Origin: Escherichia coli
Lineage (GTDB): Bacteria > Pseudomonadota > Gammaproteobacteria > Enterobacterales > Enterobacteriaceae
Length of the DNA stretch: 64,000 bases
NCBI RefSeq assembly: GCF_003334405.1
Contig: NZ_QOWM01000012.1
Direction: 5' to 3' (one strand)
Position numbers and translations under genes: made by a program. The notes beneath the pieces are model-generated. The model was not told the origin of the DNA. It did no database searches and saw nothing but the letters and a program-made list of their open reading frames with translations. Below are positions 1-21,087 of the stretch, one piece after another. Position 1 is the first letter of the stretch. Every line of letters begins with the position of its first letter.

Positions 1-2534
1 GTGTTTTTCGTCCCCAAATCCGTACTGGATGCGCTGGCGCTGTGGGTGTGCGATTTAATGCCGTCCTGTTCCTGAGACAATACGGCACGACCACTGGCGG
101 GTTTGCCCTTAATCGTCCAGCCACGCATATCAGGGATCACGCCTGACGGATAAGCGGCTGCAAGTTTCGGGTATGCAGATTTGTCAAAAGTCTGTCCCTG
201 CATCAGGGCATAGCCAGACGGAACGGTATCTGATGGCCACGGGATTGGTGCGCCAGGCGGATAAAACTGCTCTGATGGCGTATAGAGTGAATAAACTGTA
301 CCGTCCGTTAACCCTTCCGGCTTATTAGCAGAATATGCTGGTGACGTATGAATCGTCACGCTGGCATTACTGGTATAATCCCATTGAATATTTACACCAG
401 TCGCATAATTTCCGATTGCAACGTAAATATCGTAAGTATCACCAGATGTATTGACCCAGGCAAAATTTGTAAACCCTGTCGATGTGCGCTGCCATAAAGC
501 ACCAGTAATCCCCTTCGGATTACCATTACCTGCACGCAAAACAAGTTCAGATATACCTGCCTGTTGAGGTGACCCCACGTTAAATCCCGCGCCACCAATC
601 AACGTAATTGAAACAACAGAACTCGCCTGTGGCATGGTTACCGTTGCTAATTTGAACCAACCAGCACCACCGCTGAATGACATTGTTGTTGAGTTAAGCG
701 TACCAATATCTTTCGGCGTCAGTGTTATATCCGCTGAAAGCGCCTTACCATTCACCTTACGGGCAGAAGGTACCCGACCATTCGCATTATCATTAGCTGC
801 TTTCACTGCTTTCGGTGTCGCGGCAAGCGTTTCAGATGCGCTGTTGGTTGCACTACTGAGCTGGACAATTCCTTTTTGTGCTGTCGTAGCGTCCTGAGCA
901 GTATATTTCCCGTTAGCAAGGTCATAGGCTGCCTTTACCGACTTTGGCGTTGCCGCCAGCATTTCAGATGTGCTGTTGGTCGCGTTGCTAAGCTGAACTA
1001 TCCCTTTCTGTGCTGTCGTTGCATCCTGTGCGGTGTATTTCCCGTTAGCCAGCTCATACGCGGCCTTAACGGCTTTTGGCGTTGCCGCCAGTGACTCGGA
1101 AGTGCTGTTAGTCGCACTGCTGAGCTGTACTATCCCCTTTTTCGTCGTGCTCGCATCCTCAAGCGCCACGGCGGATGCAATATCCTCTGCCCGTTTTGCC
1201 GCTGTCTCGGCGCGCGTTGCCGCGGATTCCGCCGTACTTTTGCTCTGAGCTGCCGCCGTCGCACTGCCAGCTGCCTCTGTCGCCTTCGTGGATGCCGTCG
1301 TGGCGCTGCCCTTTGCTGCTGACGCCTGTCTGGTCGCCTCATCTTTTGAAGCAGACGCAGATGATGCCGATGACGCCGCCGAACTGGCGGACGATGCGGC
1401 AGCCGTTTTTGAGGATTCTGCGCTGGTTTCCGACGCTTTCGCGTTCGTCTCGGATGTCTTCGCTGCGGAAGCAGACCTCGCTGCTGCGCTGGCCTGTACA
1501 GCGGCTTCGCCAGCCTTCGTTGTGGCTGTTGAAGCAGACGATGCAGCACTTTCTGCCGATTTTCCGGCGGCGGTGGCACTGGCTGAGGCCTGCCCGGCAC
1601 TTGTTGACGCGGCACTGGCAGATAATGCAGCCGCTGTTTTTGAGCCTGCCGCAGCTGAGGCGCTCTGTCCCGCTGCCGTTTCAGAAGACCTGGCGTTCGT
1701 CTCGGACGTTTTTGCCGCCTTCGCAGAATTTGCTGCCGCCGTTGCCGAGGAAGCTGCGCTGCTGGCGCTCGAGGCTGCGTTCGTTTCTGATGATTTTGCC
1801 GCCTCTTTTGAAGCCGACGCATCCCGTGCTGAAGTGGCTGCTTCTGACGCTTTCGTGGTCGCGGTGGATGCAGAAGTGGCTGCTGATTGTTGTGACGCTG
1901 CCGCATTCGTTTCTGACGTTTTCGCCGCACCGGCACTGGTAGCCGCCGCGCTTTTTGAGGACTCTGCAGCGGCAGCACTTTTTGATGCCTCAGAGGCTTT
2001 TGCTGATGCCGTTCCTGCGCTGGAAAAAGCCTCCTGAGCCGACGTCGCGGCCTGTCCGGCTGACGTGCTGGCTGCACGTGCTGAGCCTGCAGCATCAGTC
2101 GCATGGGTTGCCGCCTCACTGGCAGATGTGCTGGCATCACTGGCTGACTTCTTCGCGGCTGCCGTGTTCTGTGCCACTGCGGACGCGTTACGCACCACCT
2201 CTTCCACCATCAGTTCAAAACGTCGCAATGCCTCCGGACGGGCATCATCCTCCGTCATGGCACCGAGAAAATCATTCAGCGTACCGGGTTGAGAATCTTC
2301 ATACACGGTGATGGTCCCGGCATGTGACGGCGGGAATCCTTCCACCAACAGAATAACGCTGTACTGACCGTACTCAACGTCCATGCTGTAACGCCCGGCT
2401 TCATCCGGATTTTCTGAGGCCAGCGTGTTCACCACCACCGTGGTGCTGTTACGTTTTGCTTTCAGCTGGATTGTGCAGTTCTGTACCGGTTTTCCTGTGC
2501 CGTCTTTCAGTACACCTGAAATCTTTACTGCCAT
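1..2534 (-). CDS. stf: Side tail fiber protein Stf, partial (C-terminal end lies beyond the window start)
   Basis: Minus-strand ATG at 2534 gives [30 protein letters not shown]..., matching the lambda Stf N-terminus; a fragment at 1141-1200 translates [19 protein letters not shown] in the same frame; my manual scan of that frame from 1140 to 1 found no stop. Absent from the ORF track because it has no stop inside the window. Confidence 0.8.
780..1150. repeat. About 2.5 tandem copies of a ~132-bp unit inside stf (44-aa peptide repeat)
   Basis: Recurring blocks gctgttggt...tttcccgttagc...ggcgttgccgccag at ~132-bp spacing. Confidence 0.6.
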
Positions 2535-2545
2535 ATTCACCCCAC

Positions 2546-2576
2546 AAAAAAGCCCGCCTGAACCGGCGGGCTGTCA
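2546..2576 (-). terminator. Putative rho-independent terminator between lom and stf
   Basis: Minus-strand hairpin gcccgccggttcaggcgggc followed by a T-run. Confidence 0.5.
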
Positions 2577-2598
2577 TAACACTGTGTTACCTGGCTAA

Positions 2599-3198
2599 TC
2601 AGAATTTATAACCGACACCCATGATGAAACCGTCAGTGCGCCAGTCGCCACTGCCGGAGCCTTCATAAGCAATATCAATGGCCACGGATTCGGTCGGGTT
2701 AAACTGCACGCCAGCTCCCCACGCCAGAGACGTGTTGCTGTGGCGACCGTCATCACTTCCGGTCAGCACGTCGTGCGTTTTCCCCTTGTTGTCAGTTACG
2801 CGGAGATAATCCCCGGAGAAAGTCGACACACGGCTGTAAGCCACACCCGCCATCGCATACGCGCTGAACCATTCATTCACGCGCACAGACGGCCCCGCCA
2901 TCACGCTGAACCAGCGGTTACGAACGGAATCTTCATGCCAGCGGGTATCGCTGTAATGGGTCAGCTGGCGATTCTTGTCTCCTGCATAGCTGAATGACGT
3001 CACCATCCCCAGTGTGTCCGTAAACTCATAACGGTATTTCACGTTAATCCCGTTCAGATCATCGCTGCCGGGAACGTTCGTCGAGGCATGAAGATACCCC
3101 GCGCTCAGCGTGGACTGATGTTCAGATGCCCATGCAGGCGCACCGGATACGGCCAGACAAATGGCTGCGGAAAAAATGGCGGCATAAAGTTTACGCAT
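2599..3198 (-). CDS. lom: Lom/Ail-family outer membrane beta-barrel protein
   Basis: 199-aa ORF with signal peptide MRKLYAAIFSAAICLAVSGAPAWA and C-terminal GVGYKF; sits between J and stf as in lambda. Confidence 0.85.
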   Translation of the reverse strand: MRKLYAAIFSAAICLAVSGAPAWASEHQSTLSAGYLHASTNVPGSDDLNGINVKYRYEFTDTLGMVTSFSYAGDKNRQLTHYSDTRWHEDSVRNRWFSVMAGPSVRVNEWFSAYAMAGVAYSRVSTFSGDYLRVTDNKGKTHDVLTGSDDGRHSNTSLAWGAGVQFNPTESVAIDIAYEGSGSGDWRTDGFIMGVGYKF

Positions 3199-3220
3199 AA
3201 TTACCTCTCGCTTTTCTGCA

Positions 3221-3250
3221 ATAAAAAAGGCACCATTTCTGGTGCCCTTA
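3221..3250 (-). terminator. Putative rho-independent terminator downstream of the J remnant
   Basis: Minus-strand hairpin ggcaccagaaatggtgcc followed by ttttttatt. Confidence 0.45.
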
Positions 3251-3267
3251 TATGGGTTATAACAATT

Positions 3268-5294
3268 TCAACGAATACTGATGCCGGAAGCGGCTTTTTT
3301 GGTCACAATCACCGTACAGTCGGTGATATTACCTGCCCGCTGATTGCCTTTATGGAAAACCTTAAACTCCAGAGTGACGCTTCCCCTGCCACTCGGCATA
3401 TCAATAACCGCACTGTAGCTACCGGGAATGGCCCCTTTAGTTTCTCTGGATGCGATTAATACACCGTTTTTGCGAACTTCAAAACCATAACCCGTGTATC
3501 TTGTACCTCCCGGGTTATTACCACTTCCCGGATCGCTATACGCTATTCCGTTAAAGATAATGGGCGGAATAATAATCTGACGGTCAAAGTTATGATCATC
3601 GCTGATGGTGACTGTAACCGTCCCGTTTGGTGTTTCCGTGTTACCCCACGTACCAGCCTGTTTCGGAAATGATTTGGATACAGCTTTAACGAAGTCACCT
3701 CTGACCTGAGTCGCCTCCAGCATGCCCTTAATCGTACAGTTTTCATTTACCGTGACATTGTTGAGCGTCCCGGCGTTCGCATTCACACTGCCACTGATAT
3801 CCGCATTTTTAGCGGTCAGCTTTCCGTCCGGTGTCAGGGAAAATGCCGGTGGATTTCCACCGCTGGTAATGGTGGGGGCCGTCAGGCGTTTCAGGAACAC
3901 GTCGTTCATGAATATCTGATCGCCCTGACCAACAAACATCGGTTTTGTGTTGCCATTCGCAGGATTAACCATCGCAATCCTGTCCGCCGCCAGCAGCACC
4001 TGACTCTGCATGCCGTCAGGGGTGTTCTCAATACCGGCACCAATACCCGCGATATAAAGGCGTCCGTCCTGCATCTGCTGCAGCTTCACAGCCCACATGC
4101 TGTTCAGGTTATTATTTGTATCAACCTGAACCTTCTGTATCTGCTGAATTGCCGCACTCTGGTCTTCCAGTTTCTTATTGACGGTCTGCGTGATTTCATT
4201 GCTGACATCCGTAATGGACGTCCTGATTTCAGCCAGGTCAGGCGCAAGCTGACCGTTATCAATCTGCGTCCACAGCTCCTGAGCCAGATGGGTTTTCCCT
4301 ATCTCGCCTTTGAAAAAATCCAGATAGCCGGATGCATCATCACTCGGCCGACCAACAGCCTCCACGAATGCCGATTTGCCAACGGTGTTCACACTGCGAA
4401 CGTAAAAATAATAATCATGGCCCGGTTTGATATTGATACTGGCGGCTATCCAGTACAGCGCCGTACCAAGATAACGCGCGCTGGTTTCAACCTGCCTGAT
4501 ATCAGCAATCCGTTTTTCCGAGAACCAGAACTCAAACTGTACCGTCGGATCATAAACCGCAAGATGCGGCGTGGCGGTTATCTGAAAATAGCCCGGCGTC
4601 AGCTCAATCCGCGACGGCGCTGCCGGTGCGGCAACAGGCGCTGGCGCAACGTCGGCAGCTTCAGCCCCCATACGCTGTATTCAGCAACGCCGTCAGGAAC
4701 ACGGCTCACTTTCACCTTCACGCCGCCGGTGACGGACTGAACCTCCACGCTGACCGGACTCCCCTGCCCGTCAACCAGGCTTATCAGCGTGGTACCGGAG
4801 GATGGCAGCGTGATTTCACGGTCGAGCGTCAGCGTCCGGGTCTGGCTGTTTACCGCCAGCACGCGCCCGCCGGTGCGGATACCGGCATAGTCATCATCGC
4901 AGATTTCAATGACATCGCCCGGTACATGGCGAAGCCCTTCGGCACCCACGCTGAAGTCCACGGTCTGCGTTTCCAGCAGTTCTGTTTTAATCAGCCACAG
5001 CCCGGCGCGGTGTGCCTGCCCCCGGCTGGTACAGCCAAAGGCATCCATCTTCGTGACGTTACGACCGTAACGGGCAATGGCCTGCGTGTCCTCCACAAGC
5101 TCTGTTGCCGTCTCCCAGCCGTTGTCCGGGTCAATCCAGTTCACCTCAACGGCATTATGGCGGTCCTTCAGGGCGCTGAAGCTGTAGCGGAACGGCGCGT
5201 CATCATCCGGCATCACCACATTACTGCGGTTATAGGTCCACACCTTATCCCGAAGAAAACACCACCAGAGAGACCGCAGGTCCGGACAGAGCAT
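3268..5294 (-). pseudogene. J: Tail tip host-specificity protein J remnant: N-terminally truncated, with an internal out-of-frame deletion near 4640-4680
   Basis: ORF 4599..5294 matches the central region of lambda J (FRYSFSALKDRHNAVEVNWIDP...[14 protein letters not shown]); ORF 3268..4671 matches the J C-terminus ([36 protein letters not shown]...); the two frames overlap at 4599-4671. Confidence 0.8.
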
Positions 5295-5413
5295 TCAGCT
5301 CTGCCAGTGTTTCTCCCGGGATCACAGTCATATCGACATCATTAATCGAGGCTGTCTTTCCCATCTTTCTGACCGTGATAGCATCCATACGCGCTGCCAG
5401 CCGGGAAAAGGGA

Positions 5414-5782
5414 TCAGACATTGAGTTTTACCGGCACTTCTTCTGCACTGGTTCCGGCATCTGCCCAGACAACCCCGACCAGCGGATCAGAGCCGCTGTT
5501 AGTCAGCTGAATTTTTCCGGACTTCAGATAAACCTTCTTACCCGTTTTCATGTCATCCGTTTTCAGCTTAGGCAGCATAAACACACCTTCGGTCATGCCG
5601 TCGCCTGTTTCACCCTGTGGAATATCGGTCAGCGCCACCGCAAAAACATCGCCCACCTGCACCAGATCTCCGCTGCTGATGGCTGCACTGGCAACAATCG
5701 CCACCGTTTTTCCTTCTTCTACAAAATTCTTTGCCATAACTGTCTCCGCACAGCCCCGTTCAGGGGCTGATTTCAGGTACAA
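5414..5782 (-). CDS. Small head decoration/cement-like protein (DUF2190-like)
   Basis: 122-aa ORF MAKNFVEEGKTVAIVASAAISSGDLVQVGD..., directly downstream of the capsid gene. Confidence 0.6.
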   Translation of the reverse strand: MYLKSAPERGCAETVMAKNFVEEGKTVAIVASAAISSGDLVQVGDVFAVALTDIPQGETGDGMTEGVFMLPKLKTDDMKTGKKVYLKSGKIQLTNSGSDPLVGVVWADAGTSAEEVPVKLNV

Positions 5783-5823
5783 AAAAAGCCCTTACGGGCC
5801 ATCAGAGTTGTTGTCTGCGACGT

Positions 5824-7782
5824 TTACGCCGTACATTTCACCAGACCGCGGTGATCAACTGGCGCGACACCGGCGTCAATACGCACTTTCGTTGTCACGC
5901 CATCCACACTGAAGCCCTCCATCTGATCAATATATGGCGTATCCACACCGTTGAGATAAGCCACTTCAATCGTATCGGAGCCTTTTGACGCAGCCAGGTA
6001 GAAGGTGGTCTGGCTGTTATCATCAAGACGAGGCTCTGCAATAACGGTCGCAAAATCTTTCACCGGGTTAATAATACCGGCGTTAATGTCAGCCCCCTTG
6101 ACACTTGAGGAGCGAATGACCTGGTTAGCAACAGACTCCATCGCCGTCGGTACCAGTACGAACGCAGGACGAATATTCAGATGACGCTCCCCCTCTTTCT
6201 GAACGCGCATCAACTGGCGGGCTTTATCCAGCGATGCCACGTCCATTGCAGCGCTCTCCAGTACGTTTGCATGTTTCGCTTTATCGAACAGACTTACATT
6301 ATCTGTGGAGATTTTCGGGTTAGACGTCAGAATGGCATAAACCAGATCGGCAATAGTGGATTTCGCCGCACGGCCCAGTTTCATCGGGACATCGGTCAGC
6401 ATATTCAGATCATCATTGATAATGGCCTGACGGGTGATACTGAACAGCTCGCCATAGGTCGCCAGTGCAATAGTGGCCTGTTTATCTCCGGTGGTGACGT
6501 ATTTATATTCCGCCCCTTCACGCACCTGACGCAGAGCACTGAAGCCCCCCATACCCACACGATGGGCAATTTTAAAATCAGACAACTGACCTTTCCGCGT
6601 CCACTGTTCATAGGTTTCAGGGGCATCTTCCCAGCCCTGCAGAATGGCTTTGTTCGCAACATCCAGCAGAATATTACCGAAGTCAGACGTACTGTGTGTG
6701 AACGCCGCACCGACCATCTGCATCGGGTTATAACCGGAAACCCCAATACCCCGTTCAGTTAGTGACATACGGGCATATTCACGCAGGGTCATCCCGTTGT
6801 AGACATTATCACGTTCGGTTTTTTCAAATCCGGCACGCGCCATCAGCGCCTGGCGAATCCCGTCCCCCACAAAATTACCGTTACCGGCATAAATATGAGC
6901 CGGGGTATTTTTATTGGATGGCGTGGACTCGCGCCCCATCTCGTTCAACAGCTTTTCACGGGCCTGCTCCAGCGAACATTCAGGATCGGCAAGACACTGA
7001 GCCTGCAGCGTCTGATAACGCCCGCCAAACATGGCAAACAGATCATTAATACCGTTTACACGCGCTTTTTGCTCTGCCAGTACCTGCGCACGGATGCTGT
7101 TTTCATCCACCACGGGTGCTGCTGCCTGCACTGGCGTCCGGGAGGCTTCAGATTCATTATCCTGTACGCGTGGAGCACTGTTGCGTGGCGGAGTAATCAT
7201 GTTTCGAATGGATTCCGGCATCTTTTTAAATTCCTCTGTACGTTTTGACTGAATACATGCCATTGCCTTAACGGCTGGCGTTACCTGATCAGCAAATCCA
7301 TGTGCCAGACATTCGGCACCGGACATCCAGGTCTCATCCGCCAGCATGGCAGCAATTTCATCGGTGGTTTTCCCGGTTTTCTGTGCATAAGCGGGTAACA
7401 GAACCGCCTCAACTTTATCGAGCAGGTCGGCATAGGTGCGCATGTCCTCCGCATCACCGCCCGTAAAGCCAAATGGTTTATGAATCATCATGAAGGTGTT
7501 TTCCGGCATAATGACCGGGTTTCCTACCATCGCAATGACCGACGCCATTGACGCCGCCACACCGTCGACATAAACGGTAATGGACGCACCATGTGTTTTC
7601 AGCGCATTAAAAATGGCGATGCCTTCAAAGACATCGCCACCCGGTGAATTAATATGGAGATTAATGTGGGTGATATCGCCCAGTGCATTCAGATCACTGA
7701 TAAACTGCTTCGCTGTAACACCCCAGAAACCAATCTCGTCATAAATATAAATATCCGCGTCACTCTGGTGACCAGCCTGCAT
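5824..7782 (-). CDS. ClpP-like prohead protease fused to an HK97-fold major capsid protein
   Basis: ORF track gives 5824..8043 (739 aa); the first ~87 codons overlap the terminase ORF, so the likely start is the ATG at 7782 (MQAGHQSDADIYIYDEIGFW). ClpP-like block NSPGGDVFEGIAIFNALK...ASMASVIAMVG, then a capsid-like C-terminal half. Confidence 0.8.
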   Translation of the reverse strand: MQAGHQSDADIYIYDEIGFWGVTAKQFISDLNALGDITHINLHINSPGGDVFEGIAIFNALKTHGASITVYVDGVAASMASVIAMVGNPVIMPENTFMMIHKPFGFTGGDAEDMRTYADLLDKVEAVLLPAYAQKTGKTTDEIAAMLADETWMSGAECLAHGFADQVTPAVKAMACIQSKRTEEFKKMPESIRNMITPPRNSAPRVQDNESEASRTPVQAAAPVVDENSIRAQVLAEQKARVNGINDLFAMFGGRYQTLQAQCLADPECSLEQAREKLLNEMGRESTPSNKNTPAHIYAGNGNFVGDGIRQALMARAGFEKTERDNVYNGMTLREYARMSLTERGIGVSGYNPMQMVGAAFTHSTSDFGNILLDVANKAILQGWEDAPETYEQWTRKGQLSDFKIAHRVGMGGFSALRQVREGAEYKYVTTGDKQATIALATYGELFSITRQAIINDDLNMLTDVPMKLGRAAKSTIADLVYAILTSNPKISTDNVSLFDKAKHANVLESAAMDVASLDKARQLMRVQKEGERHLNIRPAFVLVPTAMESVANQVIRSSSVKGADINAGIINPVKDFATVIAEPRLDDNSQTTFYLAASKGSDTIEVAYLNGVDTPYIDQMEGFSVDGVTTKVRIDAGVAPVDHRGLVKCTA

Positions 7783-7795
7783 CCTGAACCAGGAA

Positions 7796-9592
7796 TTATT
7801 CTTCGGACTGGTCGTCGGTGTGCTGCGGCTCCTGTCGTTTCGTTGCGGCACTACTGCCTCCTTTATCACTGGCCGGATCGGTATCAAATACCAGATCCAG
7901 CTTGCGGTTTTCATCAATTTCGGCCTTGCGCCGACGTTTGACATCATCCGGATTACGACCACCAGCACGTACCCAGTCTGATTCTGTCGCCGCTCCACCA
8001 CGAATCTGGATTTTCCAGGCCTCAGCCTCCTTAACAGGGTCAATCCACGGCATCACTGGTCCGGAATACACCGCGGTATACAGTGAAGAACGGTCAAGAT
8101 CGCGGGGTAGCCTGATAACACCGGATGCCACAGCCTGTTTCAGCCACGCACGATACATCGGGCGGGTGACGGCACCAATAAACCAGTCCTGCAGGATCAG
8201 GTAGCTGGCCGGATCAATTCGCTGGCTCTCCCCGTCGCTGTCACCGCGCAATGACTGCGTGATGTTGTAACGATCAATAATCCAGCGTTCGCCACGGCTG
8301 CCATAGCCCGTTACCTGAACCACAAAACGGCGATGACGTCCCGCCTGCACATCCACTGTCGCCACAAGGAAATTAACGCCATCCGGCACACTGCGGGAAG
8401 GAACTGGCTCTGCCCGCTGCTCAAGCAGTTCACTTTTTCGTTGCTCCATGCTGGCGCGGGGAAGATAAGGTAATCCCCAGTCGGTATTGATAACCGTCTT
8501 GAGTGTTTCTTCACTTCCGGTTGTCTCGTATTCCTGTTCTGCAGTAAGCAGTTTGTAAACGAGTTGCGAGAGTGTCTGGTAAGCAGCTGCCGGACCCTCC
8601 ATCCAGAATGACGCAATACGTGAGCGTCGGGGATCACCATAACGACTGCCATCCGCATTGATGGATTCACCATCCCGCAACCAGACCCCACGTCCGTTCA
8701 GCTCACGTTTGTGTTCAGGCATAATCCGTCCTGAACAGGAAGGACACTGAATATAAGCCGCCTCACTTGCCAGCACGGGATCGGCAATATCACGGAAACC
8801 AGCAACCACATCGCCGCAGGGCTGAAAATACTCACCACAGTGTGGACAGGGCCAGTACCAGCGACGGCGATCGCCACGGTTATAGAGCGACAGTATCCCC
8901 GTGGTTGGTGGAGCCTCATGCGGTGAAGTCCGTCGCCATTTCACATCCTTCACATCCCTGCCGGGGGAACTCTCCACAAGCGTCATACCACTGGACATAA
9001 ATGTTGTGGTACGTTTTGAGGCAAGAGAGAAAGCATCCCCCTCGCCATCAATATCTTCCGGAAAACGGTCATAATCCGTCAGCGCGACGCATTTATAATC
9101 TGATGAGGACATGATATTGACTGACGGCCAGCCGATTTTCAGGTAGTTACCAGCAAGGAATGTTCTGTCATAAACGTTGTTGTCATTTTTGTTCGGACTC
9201 AGGCGACTGACCACTTCCGGGCTGACGCGAAACGTTCTGGCGAGTCGTTTTTTGGAGTGTTCGCGGGCTTTTTCCTCCGTCATCTGAATGATCAGCATAT
9301 CAGCAGGATCGCAAATCACGTTGTAAATCACCCAGCCGTCAATCAGGCCGATAGTCTTGCCGGTTCGTGCCGGGCCAACAAATATCACTGCGTCGTATTC
9401 ACGCGAGGCCAGGCAGTTCATCGGCTCAATAACATACGGTGCCACCAGCGGATCCCACGGGACTGAGTTCCCTGCCCCCATGGGCACCCGCATATACTGA
9501 GCAACGGCATCAGCAACCCGCATTCGTCTCGGTGCGCGAAGGATATAACCTGAATCGGTTCGTGCTGCCTTTGCGGTTTCCTGATTCAGCAT
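7796..9592 (-). CDS. Terminase large subunit, lambda GpA family (the C-terminal ~90 aa may be a fused remnant, see findings)
   Basis: 598-aa ORF with Walker A VGPARTGKT and zinc-finger-like WPCPHCGEYF...CPSCSG, typical of GpA-type terminases. Confidence 0.85.
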   Translation of the reverse strand: MLNQETAKAARTDSGYILRAPRRMRVADAVAQYMRVPMGAGNSVPWDPLVAPYVIEPMNCLASREYDAVIFVGPARTGKTIGLIDGWVIYNVICDPADMLIIQMTEEKAREHSKKRLARTFRVSPEVVSRLSPNKNDNNVYDRTFLAGNYLKIGWPSVNIMSSSDYKCVALTDYDRFPEDIDGEGDAFSLASKRTTTFMSSGMTLVESSPGRDVKDVKWRRTSPHEAPPTTGILSLYNRGDRRRWYWPCPHCGEYFQPCGDVVAGFRDIADPVLASEAAYIQCPSCSGRIMPEHKRELNGRGVWLRDGESINADGSRYGDPRRSRIASFWMEGPAAAYQTLSQLVYKLLTAEQEYETTGSEETLKTVINTDWGLPYLPRASMEQRKSELLEQRAEPVPSRSVPDGVNFLVATVDVQAGRHRRFVVQVTGYGSRGERWIIDRYNITQSLRGDSDGESQRIDPASYLILQDWFIGAVTRPMYRAWLKQAVASGVIRLPRDLDRSSLYTAVYSGPVMPWIDPVKEAEAWKIQIRGGAATESDWVRAGGRNPDDVKRRRKAEIDENRKLDLVFDTDPASDKGGSSAATKRQEPQHTDDQSEE

Positions 9593-10086
9593 TACTCCTC
9601 CTGCTGTAATTCCTCCTCATCATCCGCACCTGCTTCAGTCACCCGCAGGGCTATCTGATCGCGCAGATCATCAATAATGGACTGAACACGGCTCACAGCG
9701 GCAGGCTGCAGACCGCAGTCACGTTCAAGAATATCCGGTAATGTCTCCAGCACCTGCACGACCGCTTTTGCCCAGATGGCAAACTCCCGTCTGACATCAC
9801 TGGCCGGAATGAGTTGTGCCGTTTCCTGTTCGAACTTAAGACGCTCACGTTCAGACTGATACCAAGCTTTGCGCTCATGCGCGTCCATTTCGCCTTCTGC
9901 AACCGGCGGTGGTAATGCCAGAAATGCCGACACAATATCAACCACCCGATAAAGCTTGAGGTTGCTTTCATGCCCCCCTGCAACGGGTAGATTTTGCAGC
10001 CTTGCCGCAGCAGTCTGGCGATGTACACCTGACAGTGCCGCCAGTTGACTGATATTCAGCGTCAGATTTTTCAACTCTCGATCCAT
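9592..10086 (-). CDS. Terminase small subunit (Nu1-like)
   Basis: 164-aa ORF directly upstream of and overlapping the terminase large subunit start; N-terminal HTH-like LTLNISQLAALSGVHRQTAAARL; acidic C-terminus. Confidence 0.75.
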   Translation of the reverse strand: MDRELKNLTLNISQLAALSGVHRQTAAARLQNLPVAGGHESNLKLYRVVDIVSAFLALPPPVAEGEMDAHERKAWYQSERERLKFEQETAQLIPASDVRREFAIWAKAVVQVLETLPDILERDCGLQPAAVSRVQSIIDDLRDQIALRVTEAGADDEEELQQEE

Positions 10087-10249
10087 ACCCGCTCCAGAAT
10101 GTTTTAAACATGCATCTTGCGAACAACTTTAGGCAAACGGTGTTAGCGATGAACAAAAAACAATCAAAATCGACACCGTAAAAATAAAAACACTGTAATA
10201 TCAATATATTACAGTAGTGGTGATGACGAATAAAATTTCAAAAACTAGC

Positions 10250-10290
10250 CTTTTTCCGCGACGCTCCCGCCCCGTGGCAGGCCACCCCAC
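10250..10290. other. Candidate cos site
   Basis: Minus-strand CACGGGGCGGGAGCGTCGCGG followed downstream by TTCGTCAT, resembling lambda cosN GGGGCGGCGACCTCGCGG...CTTCGTCAT; lies just upstream of the Nu1-like gene. Confidence 0.4.
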
Positions 10291-10539
10291 CGGAAGGACC
10301 CGCCAAAATGAGAGTGATTATCACCATTGCTGATGAATAAATTGATGAAAATCATTGAAACGCCTTTCAGCAAGATAACGGCGACGGTCGTTGTTGAACT
10401 CCGTAGCTCTGCTACTAAGGTTAAAAGCATGGCCATCTTTTGCCACCGGCAAATCTTCAATGGATTTCCCCTGCCGGTTTTTTATTCCTCACATTATCGC
10501 AGCCCCTCAGTGAAGGGCTGCTGTAATGCCTGCTCTTAC

Positions 10540-10902
10540 TCAGTAACGACCGCGCCTTCCGGTAATTTCATACCGGCAAATACCGGACAGCCCGGGGATC
10601 GTTATCTGCAGCTGGTTAGCCAGGGAGTTAATCTCAGCGACCAACACTGGCTTCGTATAGCGCCATGCCGCCAGCCCTTGTCCACAGAAGCTCGCCATAT
10701 CTTTTTTCTGATCAAACTCATGACACTTCATATTGAGCTGCGCACTTAAGCTGTTGCGATGCTGAAGTTCTCCGGTGAAGTAGTCATCCAGGACTTTATA
10801 GGCTGCATATTTAAATCCGGGGTTTAGCCATGCTGCATAATCATAAGCAACAAACTTCCCGCCATATGTTCCACCGTGTACACCGCGCTCAGTAAAAACC
10901 AC
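10540..10902 (-). CDS. Hypothetical phage protein with a KilA-N-like motif
   Basis: 120-aa ORF; GGTYGGKFVAYDYAAWLNPGF resembles the conserved KilA-N core also seen in the 265-aa ORF at 16986..17783. Confidence 0.45.
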   Translation of the reverse strand: MVFTERGVHGGTYGGKFVAYDYAAWLNPGFKYAAYKVLDDYFTGELQHRNSLSAQLNMKCHEFDQKKDMASFCGQGLAAWRYTKPVLVAEINSLANQLQITIPGLSGICRYEITGRRGRY

Positions 10903-10923
10903 AGATTCGTGTTTTTTCTCCAG

Positions 10924-11391
10924 CTACTTAATGCGCTGGGTGCGGATATATTCCTGCGCCCCTTCCAGTTGCTTCTGCATCGTCATCAACCGTTCTCTGA
11001 GGGTGAAATAATCCCGTTCAGCGGTGTCTGCCAGTCGGGGGCTGGTTGCATTATCCATGCTGGTGGGTCCGGTGGCTTCACGCACGGCTGCGGAGCAACT
11101 GGCATTGACCCGCAGGCGCTTACGACCAGCGGCAACATCAGCGCGCAGAGTTTCATTTTCAGTTTTCGCATCGGCTAACTCCTTCGTGTATTTTGCATCG
11201 ATCGCAGCAACATCACGCTGACGCTGCTGCATGTCAGCGATGGTGGCGGTCGCCTGCTTCAGCTCACTGACTTTTTTATCACGCTGTTCTTTGTAGGCGA
11301 TGGCGTTATCACGGTAATGATTGACCGCCCACGACAGGCAGACGATGATGCAGATAACCAGAGCGGAGATAATCGCGGTTACTCTGCTCAT
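10924..11391 (-). CDS. Rz: Spanin inner-membrane subunit Rz
   Basis: Strongly similar to lambda Rz ([31 protein letters not shown]...); ORF track start is 11403, likely start is MSRV at ~11391. Confidence 0.85.
10986..11171 (-). CDS. Rz1: Spanin outer-membrane lipoprotein Rz1, embedded in Rz in another frame
   Basis: 61-aa ORF with lipobox LVVSAC and proline-rich [29 protein letters not shown], as in lambda Rz1. Confidence 0.8.
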
Positions 11392-11885
11392 TGTTGCCCC
11401 CACAAACAGACTTCACGCTCAATCTCACGACGAGTCATCAGGCCTTTCCATTGCTTACCGCCAGCGTATGTCCAGCGACGTAGCTGGTCACATGCGCCTT
11501 TGATATCGCCCTGGTTGATTTTGCGAAGAAGCGTCGATGTTCTGAAATTGCCAGCACCCACGTTGTAGACGAACGAGTAAAGAGCGCCGCGCGTTGTTTC
11601 CGGTATATCGACTTTGATGTACGGGTTAATTTGTCTGGCGACCGTGGCAAGGTCTTTATTCAGGAGGGCTTTGCATTCTGCTTCGGTATACGTTTTACCT
11701 AGCATGATGTCTTTTCCGGTGTGTCCGTGACATACAGTCCATACGCCAACGATATCTTTGTATGGTATGTAGCTGACACCTTCCAGGCCATCGTCACCAC
11801 TCGGACCAGTGATGAGCACAGACGCTATGGCAACAGCCCCACCACCAATAGCAGCAGCAACAGCCTTGCGTAATGATGGCGACAT
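11388..11885 (-). CDS. R: SAR endolysin (phage lysozyme, phage 21 R-like)
   Basis: 165-aa ORF with an N-terminal weakly hydrophobic signal-anchor-release segment [18 protein letters not shown], then a lysozyme-like domain. Confidence 0.9.
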
Positions 11886-12100
11886 TATTCACCTCTCGCA
11901 GCCTTACGCTTATCTTCTTTAATCTTGAAATAAAGGTTTGTCAGATACGTCAGCAAGCCAAATACCAGACTACCTAGCACACCTATTGCCGCCCACTGTG
12001 AGGGCGTGACTTTATCGAGCAACTGTAAAAACCAGTACCCGGCACTACCTGCTGAGGTGCCATAGGCGACACCCGTTGTTAACTTATCCATGGATTTCAT
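11885..12100 (-). CDS. S: Pinholin (phage 21 S-like)
   Basis: 71-aa [29 protein letters not shown]... with the dual-start MKSM motif and two transmembrane segments, paired with the SAR endolysin. Confidence 0.9.
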
Positions 12101-12166
12101 AACCCCACCTCGCAGATGCGGGTGCTGTGTAATGGAAATAAAAAGGCCACCTACGTGGCCACCAGA

Positions 12167-13219
12167 TTATTTCCCCACCAGCTCGTTTATCTCTTTCACT
12201 GTCTGGTTAAACCGCTCTGACTCAAGCTCAACACCTAAGGCCCGACGCCCCAGCGCCATTGCTGCTTTTATTGTGGAACCGGATCCCATAAAAAAATCAG
12301 CAACCAGATCACCAGGTCGACTACTGGCATTGATTATTTGCCGGAGCATATCCGCAGGTTTCTCACACGGATGTTTACCCGGGTAGAACTGAACGGGTTT
12401 ATGCATCCAGACATCGGTATAAGGCACGGAGACTGATACGGAGAAATAGCGCCGGAGAGATTTAAACTCATCCAGCAATTCAGAATATTTGCGATTCAGT
12501 GAATCATAAGATGCCACCAGCTGGTGGTGTGGTTGTTCCAGTTGTTGTTCCTGAAACTTCTCTGCCGCTATACGGGAAAACAGTGCCTGTAACTTCCGAT
12601 AGTCAGCCTCATTCGGCAACTGCCACTGACTGGCACCAAACCAGTGGGAAACCATATTTTTCTTACCTGTGGCTTCGGCAATTTGTTTTGCCGTTATACC
12701 CAGTTCGGCACGAGCATCCCTGAAATACGATATCAGCGGTGCCATTATGTGCTGTTTGAGTTCCCTTTCTTTTGCCGCATAGCCGTCACTTTTGCCGCGA
12801 TATGGCCCCTGGTAATGTTCAGCAAACAGAACGCGCTCTGTGGCAGGAAAATATGCGCGCAGACTTTCTTTATTACACCCATTCCAACGTCCGGACGGCT
12901 TCGCCCAGATGATATGGTTAAGCACGTTGAAACGTTCACGCATCATGATCTCAATATCAGATGCCAGGCGATGCCCACAGAACAGGTAAAGGCTTCCGGC
13001 AGGTTTCAACACCCGCCAGAACTGGGCCAGACAGTGGTCCAGCCACTTAAGGTAATCTTCGTCCCCTTTCCACTGATTGTCCCAACCGTTGGGTTTCACC
13101 TTGAAGTAAGGCGGATCGGTAACAATCAGGTCAATGGAATCATCAGGCAGGGACTGAATAAAATGCAGGCAATCAGCGTTGATTAAATCAACACTGTTTA
13201 TTTTTACAGTATTTTTCAT
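12167..13219 (-). CDS. Orphan DNA methyltransferase (N6-adenine/N4-cytosine beta class)
   Basis: 350-aa ORF with motif IV DPPY near the N-terminus (LIVTDPPYF) and motif I FFMGSGST near the C-terminus. Confidence 0.85.
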   Translation of the reverse strand: MKNTVKINSVDLINADCLHFIQSLPDDSIDLIVTDPPYFKVKPNGWDNQWKGDEDYLKWLDHCLAQFWRVLKPAGSLYLFCGHRLASDIEIMMRERFNVLNHIIWAKPSGRWNGCNKESLRAYFPATERVLFAEHYQGPYRGKSDGYAAKERELKQHIMAPLISYFRDARAELGITAKQIAEATGKKNMVSHWFGASQWQLPNEADYRKLQALFSRIAAEKFQEQQLEQPHHQLVASYDSLNRKYSELLDEFKSLRRYFSVSVSVPYTDVWMHKPVQFYPGKHPCEKPADMLRQIINASSRPGDLVADFFMGSGSTIKAAMALGRRALGVELESERFNQTVKEINELVGK

Positions 13220-13368
13220 GGATCAGTAAGCGTAACTCTGGTAGGCTCACTCTGCTTTTGCGCTAAAGCAGTGGGCCGTGGTTCGCTTGTGACCAGTAAG
13301 CATGAGCGAATGGCTGGCAGGTGCTACCAACACCCACCAGCCGCCCATTTTCACAAATTAAAAGTCCT

Positions 13369-13587
13369 TCATTGCTGAAGGCGTCTGTAACAGCCGAACT
13401 GGTAATCTGCCAGCCCCGCCATAACCAACTGGGTCAGTATTAACTGACAGCGTTCGCGTGAAAGATATGTGTTTTGTGCAATCTCCCCGACTGTTGCCGG
13501 TTCGATGCTTAATTCATTAAAAACAACTTTCGCCGTTTCTGTCATATCTTGCTGTTTTAGCATGTCTTTTTTCCTTCTGGTTAACAT
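13369..13587 (-). CDS. Small hypothetical protein, possible winged-helix DNA binder
   Basis: 72-aa ORF; segment TVGEIAQNTYLSRERCQLILTQLVMAGL looks HTH-like. Confidence 0.4.
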   Translation of the reverse strand: MLTRRKKDMLKQQDMTETAKVVFNELSIEPATVGEIAQNTYLSRERCQLILTQLVMAGLADYQFGCYRRLQQ

Positions 13588-13662
13588 GACATACCAATAA
13601 CTCTTGTCTAAAAAGCCAGCAAGATAAAAAGTCAGTATTCACGACCACCAGCGTGTTTACCG

Positions 13663-13697
13663 TACTGCACCAGGTTTACAGGTACAAAAAAACCCGC
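13663..13697. terminator. Strong intrinsic terminator hairpin, candidate tR'-type element on the minus strand
   Basis: aaaaaaacccgctcgacggcgggttt; the minus-strand reading has the stem followed by seven T. Confidence 0.45.
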
Positions 13698-13975
13698 TCG
13701 ACGGCGGGTTTAAGTTGTGTGGCGAAGTAACCACTCTTGAGAGCATATCTGATTATTTACGATTGTAAATAATATATTCCCCCCAATAATTAGATTGAGA
13801 AAACATTACCATATTGATAATAAGGCAATTGACATAATTATAAAAATCATTCTTGGTTGATTTTAAAACAACAAATGCACGATATTTACCCAATCATTGA
13901 TGAATACATCTCTAAATGTTATAAATTTATTGTTTTTCTAAAGATAACTCTCATTCATATCAGGAAAGATAAAAA

Positions 13976-15427
13976 ATGTCAGACATAAAAAATATACTAA
14001 AATGCATGTACTTTGATAAAAATAGATACTCAAACTTTGGCTCCGTAATTAAAAGTCTAGAGATAAATGGATTTCGAGGAATAAAAAAACTAACATTAAA
14101 TATAAATTTTCCGGTAACTGCAATATCAGGGCTAAACGGCGCTGGGAAAAGCACTCTTGGGCAGTTAGCAATATGCGCATATAAAAAACCAGTTACAGCC
14201 CGTGAATATAAGAGATTATATATTAAAGATTTTTTCCCTGTATCTAAAGCCGATCCAGCCCCTTTCGATAATGACGCCAGTGTCATTTATAAATATGAAA
14301 CAAATGATTCAACGAAAACACAAGATGTGACTGTCACTCGCATAAAGTCTTCTTGGTCTGGATATAAAAGACAACCAGAAAGACACTGTTTTTACATTGG
14401 TTTTACTGTCTATATTCCAAAAGTAGAACGTAGAGATATAAGTGTTTATGGCGGTAAAGACTTTGATTTAACAGAGAGAAGAAGCGTCGACCATTCAGTA
14501 ATATTGAAGATGGCAAAAATAATAGGTCATCCATATGATGATATCGCATTCCAAGGAATTTCTCATAGAGCACGTCGTTCAGAAATTGGTATTGTTGAAA
14601 GACTTGGGTATTCTTATTCTGAAAATAACATGGGGTTTGGCGAAGGAAGAGTTCTTTATACGGTTGATATGCTTGAAACAGCTCCAGAGCAAAGTCTTTT
14701 CGTACTAGAAGAACCAGAAACATCTCTTCATGAAAGCGCACAGTATGAATTTGCAAAATATTTAATGGAAGTATGTCAACGTAGAAAACATCAAATAATA
14801 TTATCAACACACTCAAGTGTGATATTAAATGCTTTACCTCCTGATGCACGAAAATTACTTATTAGAGATCAGACTGGTGTCTATATCAAAGATGGAATTT
14901 CAACAACTCATGTGAGATCAATACTGTCTGATGGGCAGTTTAAAGGGCTGCATATTTGCGTAGAAGACCAGTTTGCAAAAGTTTTACTTAGTGAAGTAAT
15001 TAGAGCAAAGCGGAGAGACATTCTTAAATCCATTCAAATCACTGATATTGGAGATAAAGATGCAGTCCGACAAGCAGTCGAGGTATTCAAGAAAGCAGGC
15101 CTTAATGTTATTGCCGTAAGAGATGCAGATGTTGGAGAAAACATTAAAGATGATTTATTTTCTTTCCCTGGCAATAGGCCACCAGAAGTAGAAGTATTTC
15201 AACATGAGGAAGTAAAAAAATTCCTCTACAAGGAGTATCATATTGATTTTGATTGGTTAATAAAAAAGGAAGGGATTAGTGATCATCACAATTACACTCA
15301 AGCAATTGCTAAAGAAGCAGAATGTGAGGAGGAAGTAATTAGAACTTTAGCAATAAAAAAATATATTGAAATTATTGATGAGAAATTTGACCCACTTATT
15401 ACAAATATAGTAAGCAAAATAAAATAA
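13976..15427 (+). CDS. OLD-family-like ABC ATPase with C-terminal TOPRIM-like nuclease motifs; candidate single-gene anti-phage defence moron
   Basis: 483-aa ORF on the opposite strand to the phage operons, in an AT-rich island; Walker A GLNGAGKST, Walker B/D-loop LFVLEEPETSLH, H-loop LSTHSS, then ICVEDQ and IAVRDADVG (Toprim-like E and DxD); SD aggaaag upstream. Confidence 0.8.
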   Translation: MSDIKNILKCMYFDKNRYSNFGSVIKSLEINGFRGIKKLTLNINFPVTAISGLNGAGKSTLGQLAICAYKKPVTAREYKRLYIKDFFPVSKADPAPFDNDASVIYKYETNDSTKTQDVTVTRIKSSWSGYKRQPERHCFYIGFTVYIPKVERRDISVYGGKDFDLTERRSVDHSVILKMAKIIGHPYDDIAFQGISHRARRSEIGIVERLGYSYSENNMGFGEGRVLYTVDMLETAPEQSLFVLEEPETSLHESAQYEFAKYLMEVCQRRKHQIILSTHSSVILNALPPDARKLLIRDQTGVYIKDGISTTHVRSILSDGQFKGLHICVEDQFAKVLLSEVIRAKRRDILKSIQITDIGDKDAVRQAVEVFKKAGLNVIAVRDADVGENIKDDLFSFPGNRPPEVEVFQHEEVKKFLYKEYHIDFDWLIKKEGISDHHNYTQAIAKEAECEEEVIRTLAIKKYIEIIDEKFDPLITNIVSKIK

Positions 15428-15599
15428 CAAACCAGCAGGCGCTAATTACTAAAAACCTTGTACATTAGCGCCACCCTCAAATAAATTAGTGGTTATTAAA
15501 TCCCCACAAAAACATTAATATAAAGCACAAACAGTCCACCCTCCTTAATTTCATGCTAACAATACAAATTAAAAATCCAGATACTCATAAAATATCTTT

Positions 15600-15986
15600 C
15601 TAGATATTTGAGTCCATTTCCAATTCTATTTCTAACATTATCAACATACCTTCAATGATGCCTTCTGCCTTTTGCAATAAGCGCCCAACCCAGCAATCAG
15701 AACGCCCATGTTTACGGGCAAGCGCCATAAACGTCATACCACCTACATAATAATCTACTAATAAATCGTGCAAATCGCTGTTGTTCTTTTTCAGACGGGC
15801 CATGCACCCGCAAATGATCATCGCGTCATCGTCACAACATTGCGGACGGGATTTTACTTTTGAAGGAAGTAATCCCTTAAAACCGGCAGCAATGGACGAC
15901 CAGGTCACATCCTCATGATTATTAGCCGCCCATGCCCCCCAACGTTCAAGAACCATTTGAATATCACGCATCAACTTCCTCCACAA
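15600..15986 (-). CDS. Q: Late-gene antitermination protein Q
   Basis: 128-aa ORF with Cys-rich zinc-binding block [14 protein letters not shown]; sits upstream of the lysis and packaging genes. Confidence 0.8.
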
Positions 15987-15988
15987 AA

Positions 15989-16984
15989 TCAGGCCAGCAC
16001 GCCTATTGCCAGCGCACGATCGATAAAACGAAATATCAGCTCCAGCTGGGAACCATACTTCTCTTCAAATGCCACGGTATCCGCATGCAGCTCGTCGTGA
16101 TGCTTTCTGCACAAAGGCAACACAAAGAGGTCATGCGCTTTTGTAGCCATTCCACCCTGACCGTGGCCTATCAGGTGGTGGGGATCATCAGCAGGCTTTC
16201 CACAACATGCACACGGCTGTGTCTTAACCCAGCGTGTGTACTTTTCATTAACCCAGCGGCGACGTTTTGGGCGTAACATAAAAGACTCCGGCGACTCCGG
16301 ATCCACTTTCAGCGCCAGCACCTTTTTCGCCTTATCCTGGATGATGCTGGTGGCAGGAACCGAAGGCACAAGGTCACTTTCCCGGGTGACAGACGGCACA
16401 ACAGGCTTCGGTAATCTCAGTGCCTTACGGGCTGCACTTTCCGGTAAGGCATCCGCCAGGTCATTACGAATCAGCCACCAGCACAGTTCCGGCATTGTCA
16501 CAACGTGACTGTCATCAAAACCGAGATCCCGACGCACAACAGACAACACCCAGCGGGCACAGTTATCCGTTGCCATTGATTCCAGCCGTTCCGTGAACTG
16601 ATCACGCAGCTGGTTATCGCAGTGCCAGCACAGACGGATTGCGCCCGGCGCGTGTCGCATTGTTGTCATGTTCTCGCTGTGCCAGTCGGAATGAGGCCAC
16701 TGGCAGCCTTTTTCACGAAGTAACCAGCTTTCAAGACATTCCACGCCACCAGCACGACGGATCACTGCCTCATTGCGGAACACGGCCCGAACGGCAGGAT
16801 CATCCGCCAGCGGTTGTGATGCCGCCGGAACGGCACCACTGGCGAAAGATGAATAACGTTCCGGCTCAGGCTCCAGCAGGACACGCCCCTGCATAAACAG
16901 GGGCATCAGCTCTGAACCTGGTCTGAACAATACGATCCCCATACGCGGGGCAATTTCAGGGGTCAGTAGTGCTCTCACGGTCAC
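15989..16984 (-). CDS. Phage protein (DUF968-like) with a C-terminal Cys/His zinc-binding motif
   Basis: 331-aa ORF; C-terminal [14 protein letters not shown]...CRKHHDELH. Confidence 0.65.
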
Positions 16985-16985
16985 C

Positions 16986-17783
16986 TCAATGAACGGTATC
17001 GAGCAGCTTTAACAGCTCAGGGAATCGGGATTCGAAGAAATGCGGCTGCGTCTCGCGCGGATTTGCGGGACTGGTGATGTTCTTGCCGAACATGCAACCT
17101 TTCGCTGTCAGCGACCAGAATTTTTTGATGTTGTTAATCGCGGTACGGCTGTATCGTTCGCGTTGTTCCACGATCCCCAGCTTCGCCATCTGGTGATATG
17201 CCTGATTAGCCGTCAGGCAGATACCATACTGTTTCAGCAGTGCACTCAGTGACAGTGTCGGGCGACTTGAGCCATCAGGCGCGTCAGCAGGAGCATCAAT
17301 GGCATAGCGTGGTGCCAGATTCGGTAAGCCAACAGCCTCCTGGAGTTTCTGACAGGCCCCAAGCACAGATGAGTTAGACAGGTTTAACTCCCGGCGCATA
17401 AAGTCCAGCAGAATCACGCCAGCCTGCATCTTGTCAGCAGCCTGCCCGGATAATTTTTCCGGTGCGCTGGTTACCATATCGAAAGTACGGATCACCTTCA
17501 GATGGAATGACGGGCTGATCCACATTGCATAGGCATACACCAGTTCTTTGCAGACATACGTCCCCTGGTTATTTCCGCCACGACTAACGTTAACTGGCTC
17601 TATATTGACCGAGTTGCAAATCTGCAACTCGCTTATTAAACGTTCGGTTTGCTCATTGCGGAGCCAGAATGCAGGCTTATGCTTATCCTGAGAACCGGCA
17701 GCCCTGTGCAGATCGTTCAGGCTGTAACGCCCATAAGCATCACGACGAACTTCAATACCATCAATGACCATCAGATTATTCAT
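16986..17783 (-). CDS. KilA-N domain protein (antirepressor-like)
   Basis: 265-aa ORF; N-terminal MVIDGIEVRRDAYGRYSLNDLHRAAG and GTYVCKELVYAYAMWISPSF are typical of KilA-N. Confidence 0.7.
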   Translation of the reverse strand: MNNLMVIDGIEVRRDAYGRYSLNDLHRAAGSQDKHKPAFWLRNEQTERLISELQICNSVNIEPVNVSRGGNNQGTYVCKELVYAYAMWISPSFHLKVIRTFDMVTSAPEKLSGQAADKMQAGVILLDFMRRELNLSNSSVLGACQKLQEAVGLPNLAPRYAIDAPADAPDGSSRPTLSLSALLKQYGICLTANQAYHQMAKLGIVEQRERYSRTAINNIKKFWSLTAKGCMFGKNITSPANPRETQPHFFESRFPELLKLLDTVH

Positions 17784-20886: not shown

Positions 20887-21087
20887 CTAATCTTTCGGAT
20901 AGATATCCGGTCTTAAGTCAGATTTCGTAATTGCACCTGACGTGCATTGCTCAAGTTTTTTAGCCAGCACAAAACTGGCTTTTTTATAGCCATTGAAAAC
21001 CAGCCGTAAGTAGCCAGGTGTTGAGCCAACTTTTCCGGCCAACTCGCCCTGCTGTTCTTTGGTTAAAGAGTCCCAATACGCTTTCAT
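20887..21087 (-). CDS. Cro/YdaS-like small HTH regulator
   Basis: The ORF track extends this to 21390 (167 aa), overlapping the cI start; the plausible gene is the last 66 aa (MKAYWDSLTKEQQGELAGKVGSTPGYLRLV...), divergent from cI. Confidence 0.6.
   Translation of the reverse strand: MKAYWDSLTKEQQGELAGKVGSTPGYLRLVFNGYKKASFVLAKKLEQCTSGAITKSDLRPDIYPKD

Follow-up and report, generated by a model that had tools for sequence, protein, structure and literature searches.

Qin, Rac and DLP12 are cryptic lambdoid prophages that have lost morphogenesis genes, carry several short-homology deletions and hold gene fragments fused into chimeric open reading frames (ORFs). The same features are found in the prophage described here, which lies in a 64,000-nucleotide stretch of Escherichia coli DNA (nucleotides 1-64000 of QOWM01000012.1, assembly GCA_003334405.1), referred to below as the window. 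Our subject is the ORF at 9592..7796 on the minus strand of the window, in which the large terminase gene (terL) is fused to the portal gene, and the position within terL at which the fusion begins. Qin-type copies have a terL that is truncated at the same nucleotide as in the window. Compared with Qin, Rac and DLP12, however, the window prophage keeps the whole early, lysis and small terminase (terS) region together with an intact protease-capsid gene, and its fusion is in frame and is hence annotated as an ordinary protein.

The head module of the mEp460/cdtI type comprises a DUF1441 TerS, a GpA-family TerL, a small adaptor, a lambda-family portal, and a ClpP-capsid fusion. The window has the same gene order and shows 98.8-99.3% DNA identity to this module on either side of the fusion junction. 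Unlike mEp460, it lacks 2,023 bp (nucleotides 1910-3932), which hold TerL codons 465-700, all of gp03 (the head-tail adaptor gene) and portal codons 1-367.

Hot spots of short-homology illegitimate recombination are known, for example in the formation of lambda bio transducing phages, where fixed pairs of sites are joined at junctions of a few base pairs. The terL site is similar in that one site is reused with few-bp junctions, but differs in that only one end is fixed and at least 14 different sites serve as its partner. A second parallel is the 'type b' excision associated with IEE (Kusumoto 2011, as summarized in PMC9330008 and PMC9943667). So far as those summaries describe them, such events resemble the ones reported here in being free of insertion sequences (IS), in having one anchor, a variable length and either direction, and in using a few nucleotides of microhomology. 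In contrast to 'type b' events, no IS was found at the anchor in any of the copies searched, and an IS-bearing starting state would be hypothetical.

The terminase-portal chimera

The chimera, its two parts and their junction are as follows, all on the minus strand.

9592..7796, minus strand: terminase-portal chimeric ORF of 598 residues (from the ORF list)
8202..9592, minus strand: terminase part, codons 1-464, with the TerS-proximal N-terminus, the whole GpA ATPase and the first ~40% of the GpA nuclease
7796..8203, minus strand: portal-derived part, portal codons 368-502 and the native stop codon of the portal gene (BLASTP, PHROG, tblastn)
8202..8205, minus strand: deletion junction, coinciding with the recurrent breakpoint (overlapping BLAST segments and base-by-base comparison with mEp460)

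The two parts of the protein have separate and unambiguous relatives. By BLASTP, residues 1-464 correspond to residues 1-464 of the 700-residue mEp460 TerL with a single substitution, and the identity stops at residue 464. Residues 464-598 are identical to residues 368-502 of the mEp460 portal protein gp04 at 135 of 135 positions (E = 6e-92). PHROG families divide the ORF at the same place, with terminase family phrog_15 covering residues 1-454 and portal families phrog_537 and phrog_21 matching residues 463/464-597 (positions 99-231 of 233 in phrog_537). Pfam finds an entire GpA_ATPase domain (PF05876; residues 41-304, model positions 2-247 of 247, E = 4e-72) followed by an incomplete GpA_nuclease domain (PF20454; residues 326-448, model positions 1-116 of 294). 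No Pfam domain matches the last 150 residues of the ORF, evidently because the Pfam portal model stops short of the last 135 residues. A PDB sequence search with the ORF gave no match.

Comparison with the annotated mEp460 genome places the junction to within a few nucleotides. Window 10111..8202 corresponds to mEp460 1-1909 at 99.3% DNA identity, and window 8205..5246 corresponds to mEp460 3929-6888. The junction lies in a 4-nucleotide microhomology, GCTA, where terL reads …CCAGCTA/TCC and the portal gene reads …ATGGCTA/CCTG (a slash marks the break here and below). A one-frame offset between terL and the portal gene is exactly compensated by the deletion, and the ORF reaches the portal's native stop codon. 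A megablast search of 7300-9700 against phage genomes splits in the same way, with positions 1-1499 matching mEp460-like terminase at ~99% identity and positions 1498-2400 matching sequence labelled as portal and protease/scaffold. When mEp460 proteins were searched with tblastn, portal residues 1-367 of 502, which make up the N-terminal and central fold, were absent from both the ORF and the 64-kb window; no other portal sequence and no gp03 adaptor were found within the window. A single illegitimate-recombination deletion joined terL codon 464 to portal codon 368 via GCTA, with the reading frame kept by chance and translation running from the terminase ATG to the portal stop.

The original prediction, made from the sequence of the window, had pointed to a 598-residue terminase ORF with a foreign, non-terminase tail, left by an in-frame deletion of the terL 3' end and most of a now missing portal gene. 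The ORF exists as described, and both the foreign tail and the deletion are borne out; the adaptor gene has gone too, and portal residues 368-502 are all that the window retains of a portal. The proposed dimensions hold less well. The tail comprises 135 residues (464-598; window 7796-8203) where about 90 had been estimated, the junction falls at residue 464 where a position near 510 had been suggested, and the marked interval of 7796-8100 takes in the distal three quarters of the tail while the junction at 8202-8205 lies outside it. Pairwise alignment to GpA terminases and lambda-family portals, which had been put forward as the check, splits the protein into TerL and portal at 464.

The exact protein is deposited as WP_165838114.1, a singleton in its 90% cluster, under the NCBI name 'terminase gpA endonuclease subunit'. 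This plain terminase name, together with the silence of Pfam on the tail, is in keeping with a genuine full-length terminase variant that has a different charged C-terminal domain and has suffered no deletion. We give that interpretation practically no chance. Colinear alignment with a full-length GpA terminase fails past residue 464, the tail matches the C-terminus of a close relative's portal at 100% identity, and the DNA runs colinearly from the tail into the next gene. The nuclease domain is cut at position 116 of 294, the portal and adaptor genes are absent, and intact relatives of the terminase part, at 99% identity, are 700 residues long. The protein identities to TerL and portal and the DNA junction map together rule out a full-length variant.

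In lambda, the C-terminal region of gpA docks on the portal. The chimeric product would keep the TerS-proximal N-terminus and the packaging ATPase, but would be without ~60% of the nuclease domain and without the C-terminal region. Of the portal it would carry the last 135 residues alone, the N-terminal and central fold being absent. A protein with a partial nuclease and a portal remnant would be expected neither to cut or package DNA nor to build a portal ring.

The junction is real and recurs in independent assemblies. The Logan assembly of SRR3989531 has the same junction and is 100% identical to the window over 7.7 kb. The Logan assembly of SRR29542960 (L004) also has it, with 45 single-nucleotide polymorphisms (SNPs) over 4,727 positions. 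Because this second copy has kept tail genes U, V, G, T and H, the terL-portal deletion is an event separate from the loss of tail genes in the window. In the fusion ORF, the window and SRR29542960 differ by 12 SNPs in 11 codons, all of them synonymous, and the proteins are identical. A third allele (P0059) encodes a protein that differs from that of the window at two residues. Two prophage fragments could conceivably have been wrongly joined when a draft genome was assembled, given that the window comes from a draft contig, that E. coli often has several near-identical lambdoid prophages, and that the junction is in no complete genome. We nevertheless consider such an assembly artefact very improbable. 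The overlap at the join is only 4 nucleotides, far below any assembler k-mer; the same junction appears in separately assembled runs, one of them ~1% diverged with other downstream genes; and complete genomes hold analogous junctions at the same terL end.

We conclude that ORF 9592..7796 is almost certainly a chimeric pseudogene, produced by deletion in a defective E. coli lambdoid prophage of the mEp460/cdtI type. Several points weigh against this conclusion. Loss of function in the chimera is read from its domain content. The ORF is open in every copy seen, which alone could suggest purifying selection on the chimera. A junction probe found the exact junction in 0 of 5,426 complete E. coli genomes; the junction is therefore rare, and its support comes mostly from draft or Logan assemblies. 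An intact ORF is explained equally well by recombination with intact phage alleles or by independent recurrence at a hot spot, and the synonymous-only SNPs could likewise reflect recombination with functional phage alleles, independent hot-spot recurrence or selection on the chimera.

A chimera kept because it is useful, for example as a dominant-negative TerL that binds TerS or DNA, is incapable of cutting or docking, and so hinders packaging by superinfecting mEp460-type phages, would account for the preserved frame, for an ORF that is open in all copies, and for the 11 synonymous versus 0 non-synonymous codon differences. TerS and the ATPase domain are intact, and other in-frame fusions occur at the same terL end (P0137, P0065, P0128). 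This account seems unlikely to us, since junctions that are out of frame or immediately terminated are at least as common (H26, L006, L007, L009, L011), the junction is rare, and a synonymous-only pattern is expected from variation imported from functional phage alleles. The fusion is routine prophage decay and an ordinary deletion-derived chimeric pseudogene.

A recurrent breakpoint in terL

In two complete genomes the junction probe matched as two separate pieces, which led us to pattern scans and a protein census of terL ends. The terL-side end of the deletion (…CCAGCTA/T) is a nucleotide-precise, two-sided recurrent breakpoint at mEp460 1905-1910. We found at least 13 left-anchored junctions with different partners and at least one right-anchored junction, giving about 15 junction types within 6 nucleotides. 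These span unrelated E. coli, including Qin-type cryptic prophages, as well as IMG/VR and metagenome contigs, and the deletions extend from 1.7 kb to more than 20 kb in both directions. The junctions are given below by partner; except where stated, the terL side ends in …GATCCGGCCAGCTA.

terL to portal codon 368: the window, L003, L004 and P0059
terL to portal codon 354, in frame, seen at the protein level only: P0137
terL to portal codon 262: L005
terL to about portal codon 446 and on into the protease-capsid gene, forming a 1,178-residue ORF: L013
terL to the tape-measure gene: L006
terL to a tail-assembly gene: L011 and L012
terL to J, in a cryptic prophage of the Qin type with a terL allele of only 81% overall identity: L144
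terL to J, one nucleotide earlier than the common end: L149
terL to lom, in frame, 628 residues: L008
terL to stf, at two sites: L007 and L151
terL to two further partners: L009/L010 and L150
right-anchored, a cro-like early gene to TATCCGGAAGAC…, with terL from codon 464 on: three IMG/VR contigs, L135/L136/L140

The complete genome NZ_CP024245.1 illustrates an out-of-frame case, with a terminase pseudogene of 463 codons that passes from …CCAGCTA/GCGGCG to portal codon 262. The right-anchored junction reads cro/TATCCGG, and the undeleted cro partner site is present in the window at 20897-20926. Undeleted sequence could be recovered for nine partners, and all of them share 2-4 nucleotides of microhomology with terL. 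In 8 of the 9 the shared bases include the central TA (as TA, TAT, TATC or GCTA), and the ninth, L149, is joined one nucleotide earlier via CT/AGCT. On this evidence the terL-side end of the window deletion is non-random, falling in a zone of at most 6 nucleotides (AGCTAT, mEp460 1905-1910). In E. coli prophages, DNA ends arise repeatedly in this zone and are rejoined to distal sites via 2-4 nucleotides of terminal microhomology.

Whether the breakpoint is over-used (the ASCERTAINMENT question) was assessed with identical 90-nucleotide probes placed at the site and at two controls in terL, one 200 bp upstream and one 200 bp downstream, using the 5,426 complete genomes. Only-broken copies made up 34 of 1,953 matching records at the site, compared with 5 of 1,975 and 6 of 1,908 at the control probes. 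Broken copies are therefore about 6-fold commoner at the site, an approximate figure as the records are not phylogenetically independent. About 15 junctions inside six nucleotides is far beyond uniform expectation. Other terL breakpoints exist at residue 36, at residue 438 and at mEp460 2040, and at residues 199-523 among 50%-identity representatives, which indicates that decay by deletion is general. Our literature search returned nothing relevant on a terminase deletion hot spot or on IS629 insertion in terL, and we found no published description of a recurrent, nucleotide-precise terL breakpoint.

Codon 438 is the site of a second common terL truncation (…GERWI/KTWTLTGCC, then stop), which appears in Qin/Rac-like contexts (L142/L143, P0121-P0133). 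Many NCBI 'partial' terminases stop at residues 436-440 where their contigs end, a pattern that points to a further frequent junction or to the edge of a repeat.

Two further observations concern the partner side of the junctions. The stf site GGATAT/TGCATCC (window 1173-1185, minus strand; L007, L024, L127) serves as the right-hand junction for three left partners, namely terL, J and one of no assigned identity, and other small recurrent breakpoints may exist in these prophages. The tail of L007, a 27-mer of which is found in more than 120 viral contigs, was considered as a possible IS end and rejected, as it is native stf sequence. The portal remnant of the window contains a Chi sequence, GCTGGTGG, at 7959-7966 (minus strand), where mEp460 has GCAGGTGG. 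The terL junction of L013 lies 3 nucleotides upstream of this Chi position, possibly by coincidence.

The surrounding prophage

The neighbouring morphogenesis genes are a mixture of intact and truncated copies.

9592..10086, minus strand: small terminase TerS of the DUF1441 type, intact (ORF list; phrog_141; PF07278 on the identical locus L002)
5824..7782, minus strand: ClpP-like prohead protease/major capsid fusion gene, intact, 652 residues (tblastn, PHROG)
5245..5421, minus strand: truncated minor-tail gene, 58 of 91 codons, ending at the second deletion junction
3268..5294, minus strand: two overlapping, out-of-phase remnants of the central tail fibre gene J (phrog_31, phrog_2148; BLAST map)

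The TerS stop codon overlaps the ATG of the fusion ORF. The protease/capsid gene directly follows the portal remnant, and no portal gene stands between it and the terminase; it aligns to mEp460 gp05 over 652 of 652 residues at 99% identity and matches phrog_133 over its full length. In all, the prophage has three deletions relative to the near-identical intact phage, the first two with microhomologies (GCTA and GATA). The second deletion removes mEp460 6889-16038, with its junction and the GATA microhomology at window 5246-5249. It takes the tail shaft, tape measure and tip genes together with the 5' part of J, and fuses the minor-tail remnant to mid-J. The third removes mEp460 16660-17076 inside J (window ~4628-4632), where it divides one J remnant from the other. 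Given the terL-portal and tail deletions, the prophage would be unable to form heads or tails, and from the absence of the portal, adaptor, tail shaft and tape measure genes we infer that it makes no particles.

The C-terminal J fragment (window 3268-4671, minus strand) matches positions 987-1271 of the 1,330-position terminase profile phrog_15. Terminase-J and terminase-portal chimeras seem to contaminate family models and annotations. Elsewhere in the prophage, the opposite strand carries a low-GC (36%) gene for a 483-residue AAA-ATPase at 13976-15427 (plus strand), flanked by the Q region on one side and by the methyltransferase and lysis genes on the other. PADLOC matches it best to HEC-04, a candidate defence family (E = 4e-47), with ATPase-Toprim, AriA and GajA-like ATPases next in rank; the gene is probably a defence moron carried by the prophage.

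Origin of the fixed end and its significance

A fixed terL end could arise if an IS had inserted at the TA and was then removed with variable flanking DNA by IEE-type, transposase-dependent excision, with the ends joined by microhomology ('type b'). IEE events take away an IS and adjacent DNA, 'from a few nucleotides to >40 000', and the ends are joined via 2-6 nucleotides of microhomology (PMC9943667; PMC9330008). The terL events are IS-free, bidirectional and attached to a single anchor, and their lengths of 1.7 kb to more than 20 kb and microhomologies of 2-4 nucleotides agree with this origin. Left products end in …GCTA and the right product starts with TATCC…, which fits a 2-bp TA duplication. 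We nonetheless regard excision of an IS as rather unlikely. An IS end is present in none of the ~15 junction types, and the same site was hit in a terL allele that is only 81% identical overall, which means that the IS would need strong target specificity. The IS-occupied site was also not found, in a non-exhaustive search, at the left or right flanks of non-intact IMG/VR copies, in JGI metagenomes, in a 60-row sample of complete genomes (2-kb split match), or with a terL/IS30 chimeric probe; these negative results count against an IS intermediate.

A second possibility is that a sequence- or structure-specific enzyme cuts the site and that the end is rejoined by microhomology. Candidates would be a homing-type or defence nuclease, an HUH/Y1 enzyme, or a serine-recombinase-like enzyme with a 2-bp stagger. 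Cutting of this kind would explain the nucleotide-level precision, the use of the site from both sides, and the central TA common to 8 of the 9 recovered partners, and it is in keeping with the fact that an IS was never observed at the site. The 18-mer at the site is unique in the phage, with no second cos-like copy at up to 3 mismatches. An inverted repeat, GGCCAGCT (1901-1908)/AGCTGGCC (1953-1960), has the TA at the 3' edge of its left arm, and a 121-nucleotide stretch containing this repeat folds better than shuffled sequences (z = -3.3). Other evidence is less favourable. No candidate enzyme is pinned down, the stem is short (8 bp with a 44-nucleotide loop), and 61-nucleotide folds are not significant. 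Among the best 150 representatives of diverse GpA homologues, no intein or homing-endonuclease insertion was found at the homologous position, which also counts against an enzyme of this kind. We hold site-specific cutting to be possible, though less than an even prospect. Restriction-type causes (TCCGGA, AGCT, or an EcoP15I site 19-20 nucleotides away) were rejected, since these sites also occur frequently in other places and lie at a spacing that does not match.

Alternatively, the local hairpin may stall replication at its base, after which the nascent 3' end (…GGCCAGCTA) would switch template to distal sites whose terminal nucleotides match. Terminal microhomology at all recovered junctions, predicted secondary structure that starts directly after the break point, and the other two deletions of the prophage, which are likewise microhomology-mediated, are all consistent with template switching. 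However, distances to the partners reach more than 20 kb and extend in either direction, a long way for slippage within a fork, and the control regions also have small hairpins yet show no excess of breaks. This origin is doubtful in our view. All three explanations are proposals, and we place site-specific cutting slightly above the other two.

The fusion matters mainly for annotation, in that WP_165838114.1 is deposited as a normal terminase subunit; judged from its sequence, it would also mark the prophage as unable to package DNA. Of greater interest is the recurrent breakpoint. We tentatively suggest that in mEp460-type prophages a specific DNA-breaking activity targets the dinucleotide at terL codon 464. 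With similar reserve, that activity might be a nuclease, an HUH/recombinase-type enzyme, or a highly target-specific IS that was later excised. If a defined activity does cut prophage terL at one nucleotide, part of what appears to be random prophage decay would be site-directed, which bears on how prophages are disarmed by bacteria or by competing mobile elements. The packaging and head genes of resident prophages would then be recurrently destroyed across many unrelated E. coli lineages, through directed prophage disarmament or inter-phage conflict and not through random decay.

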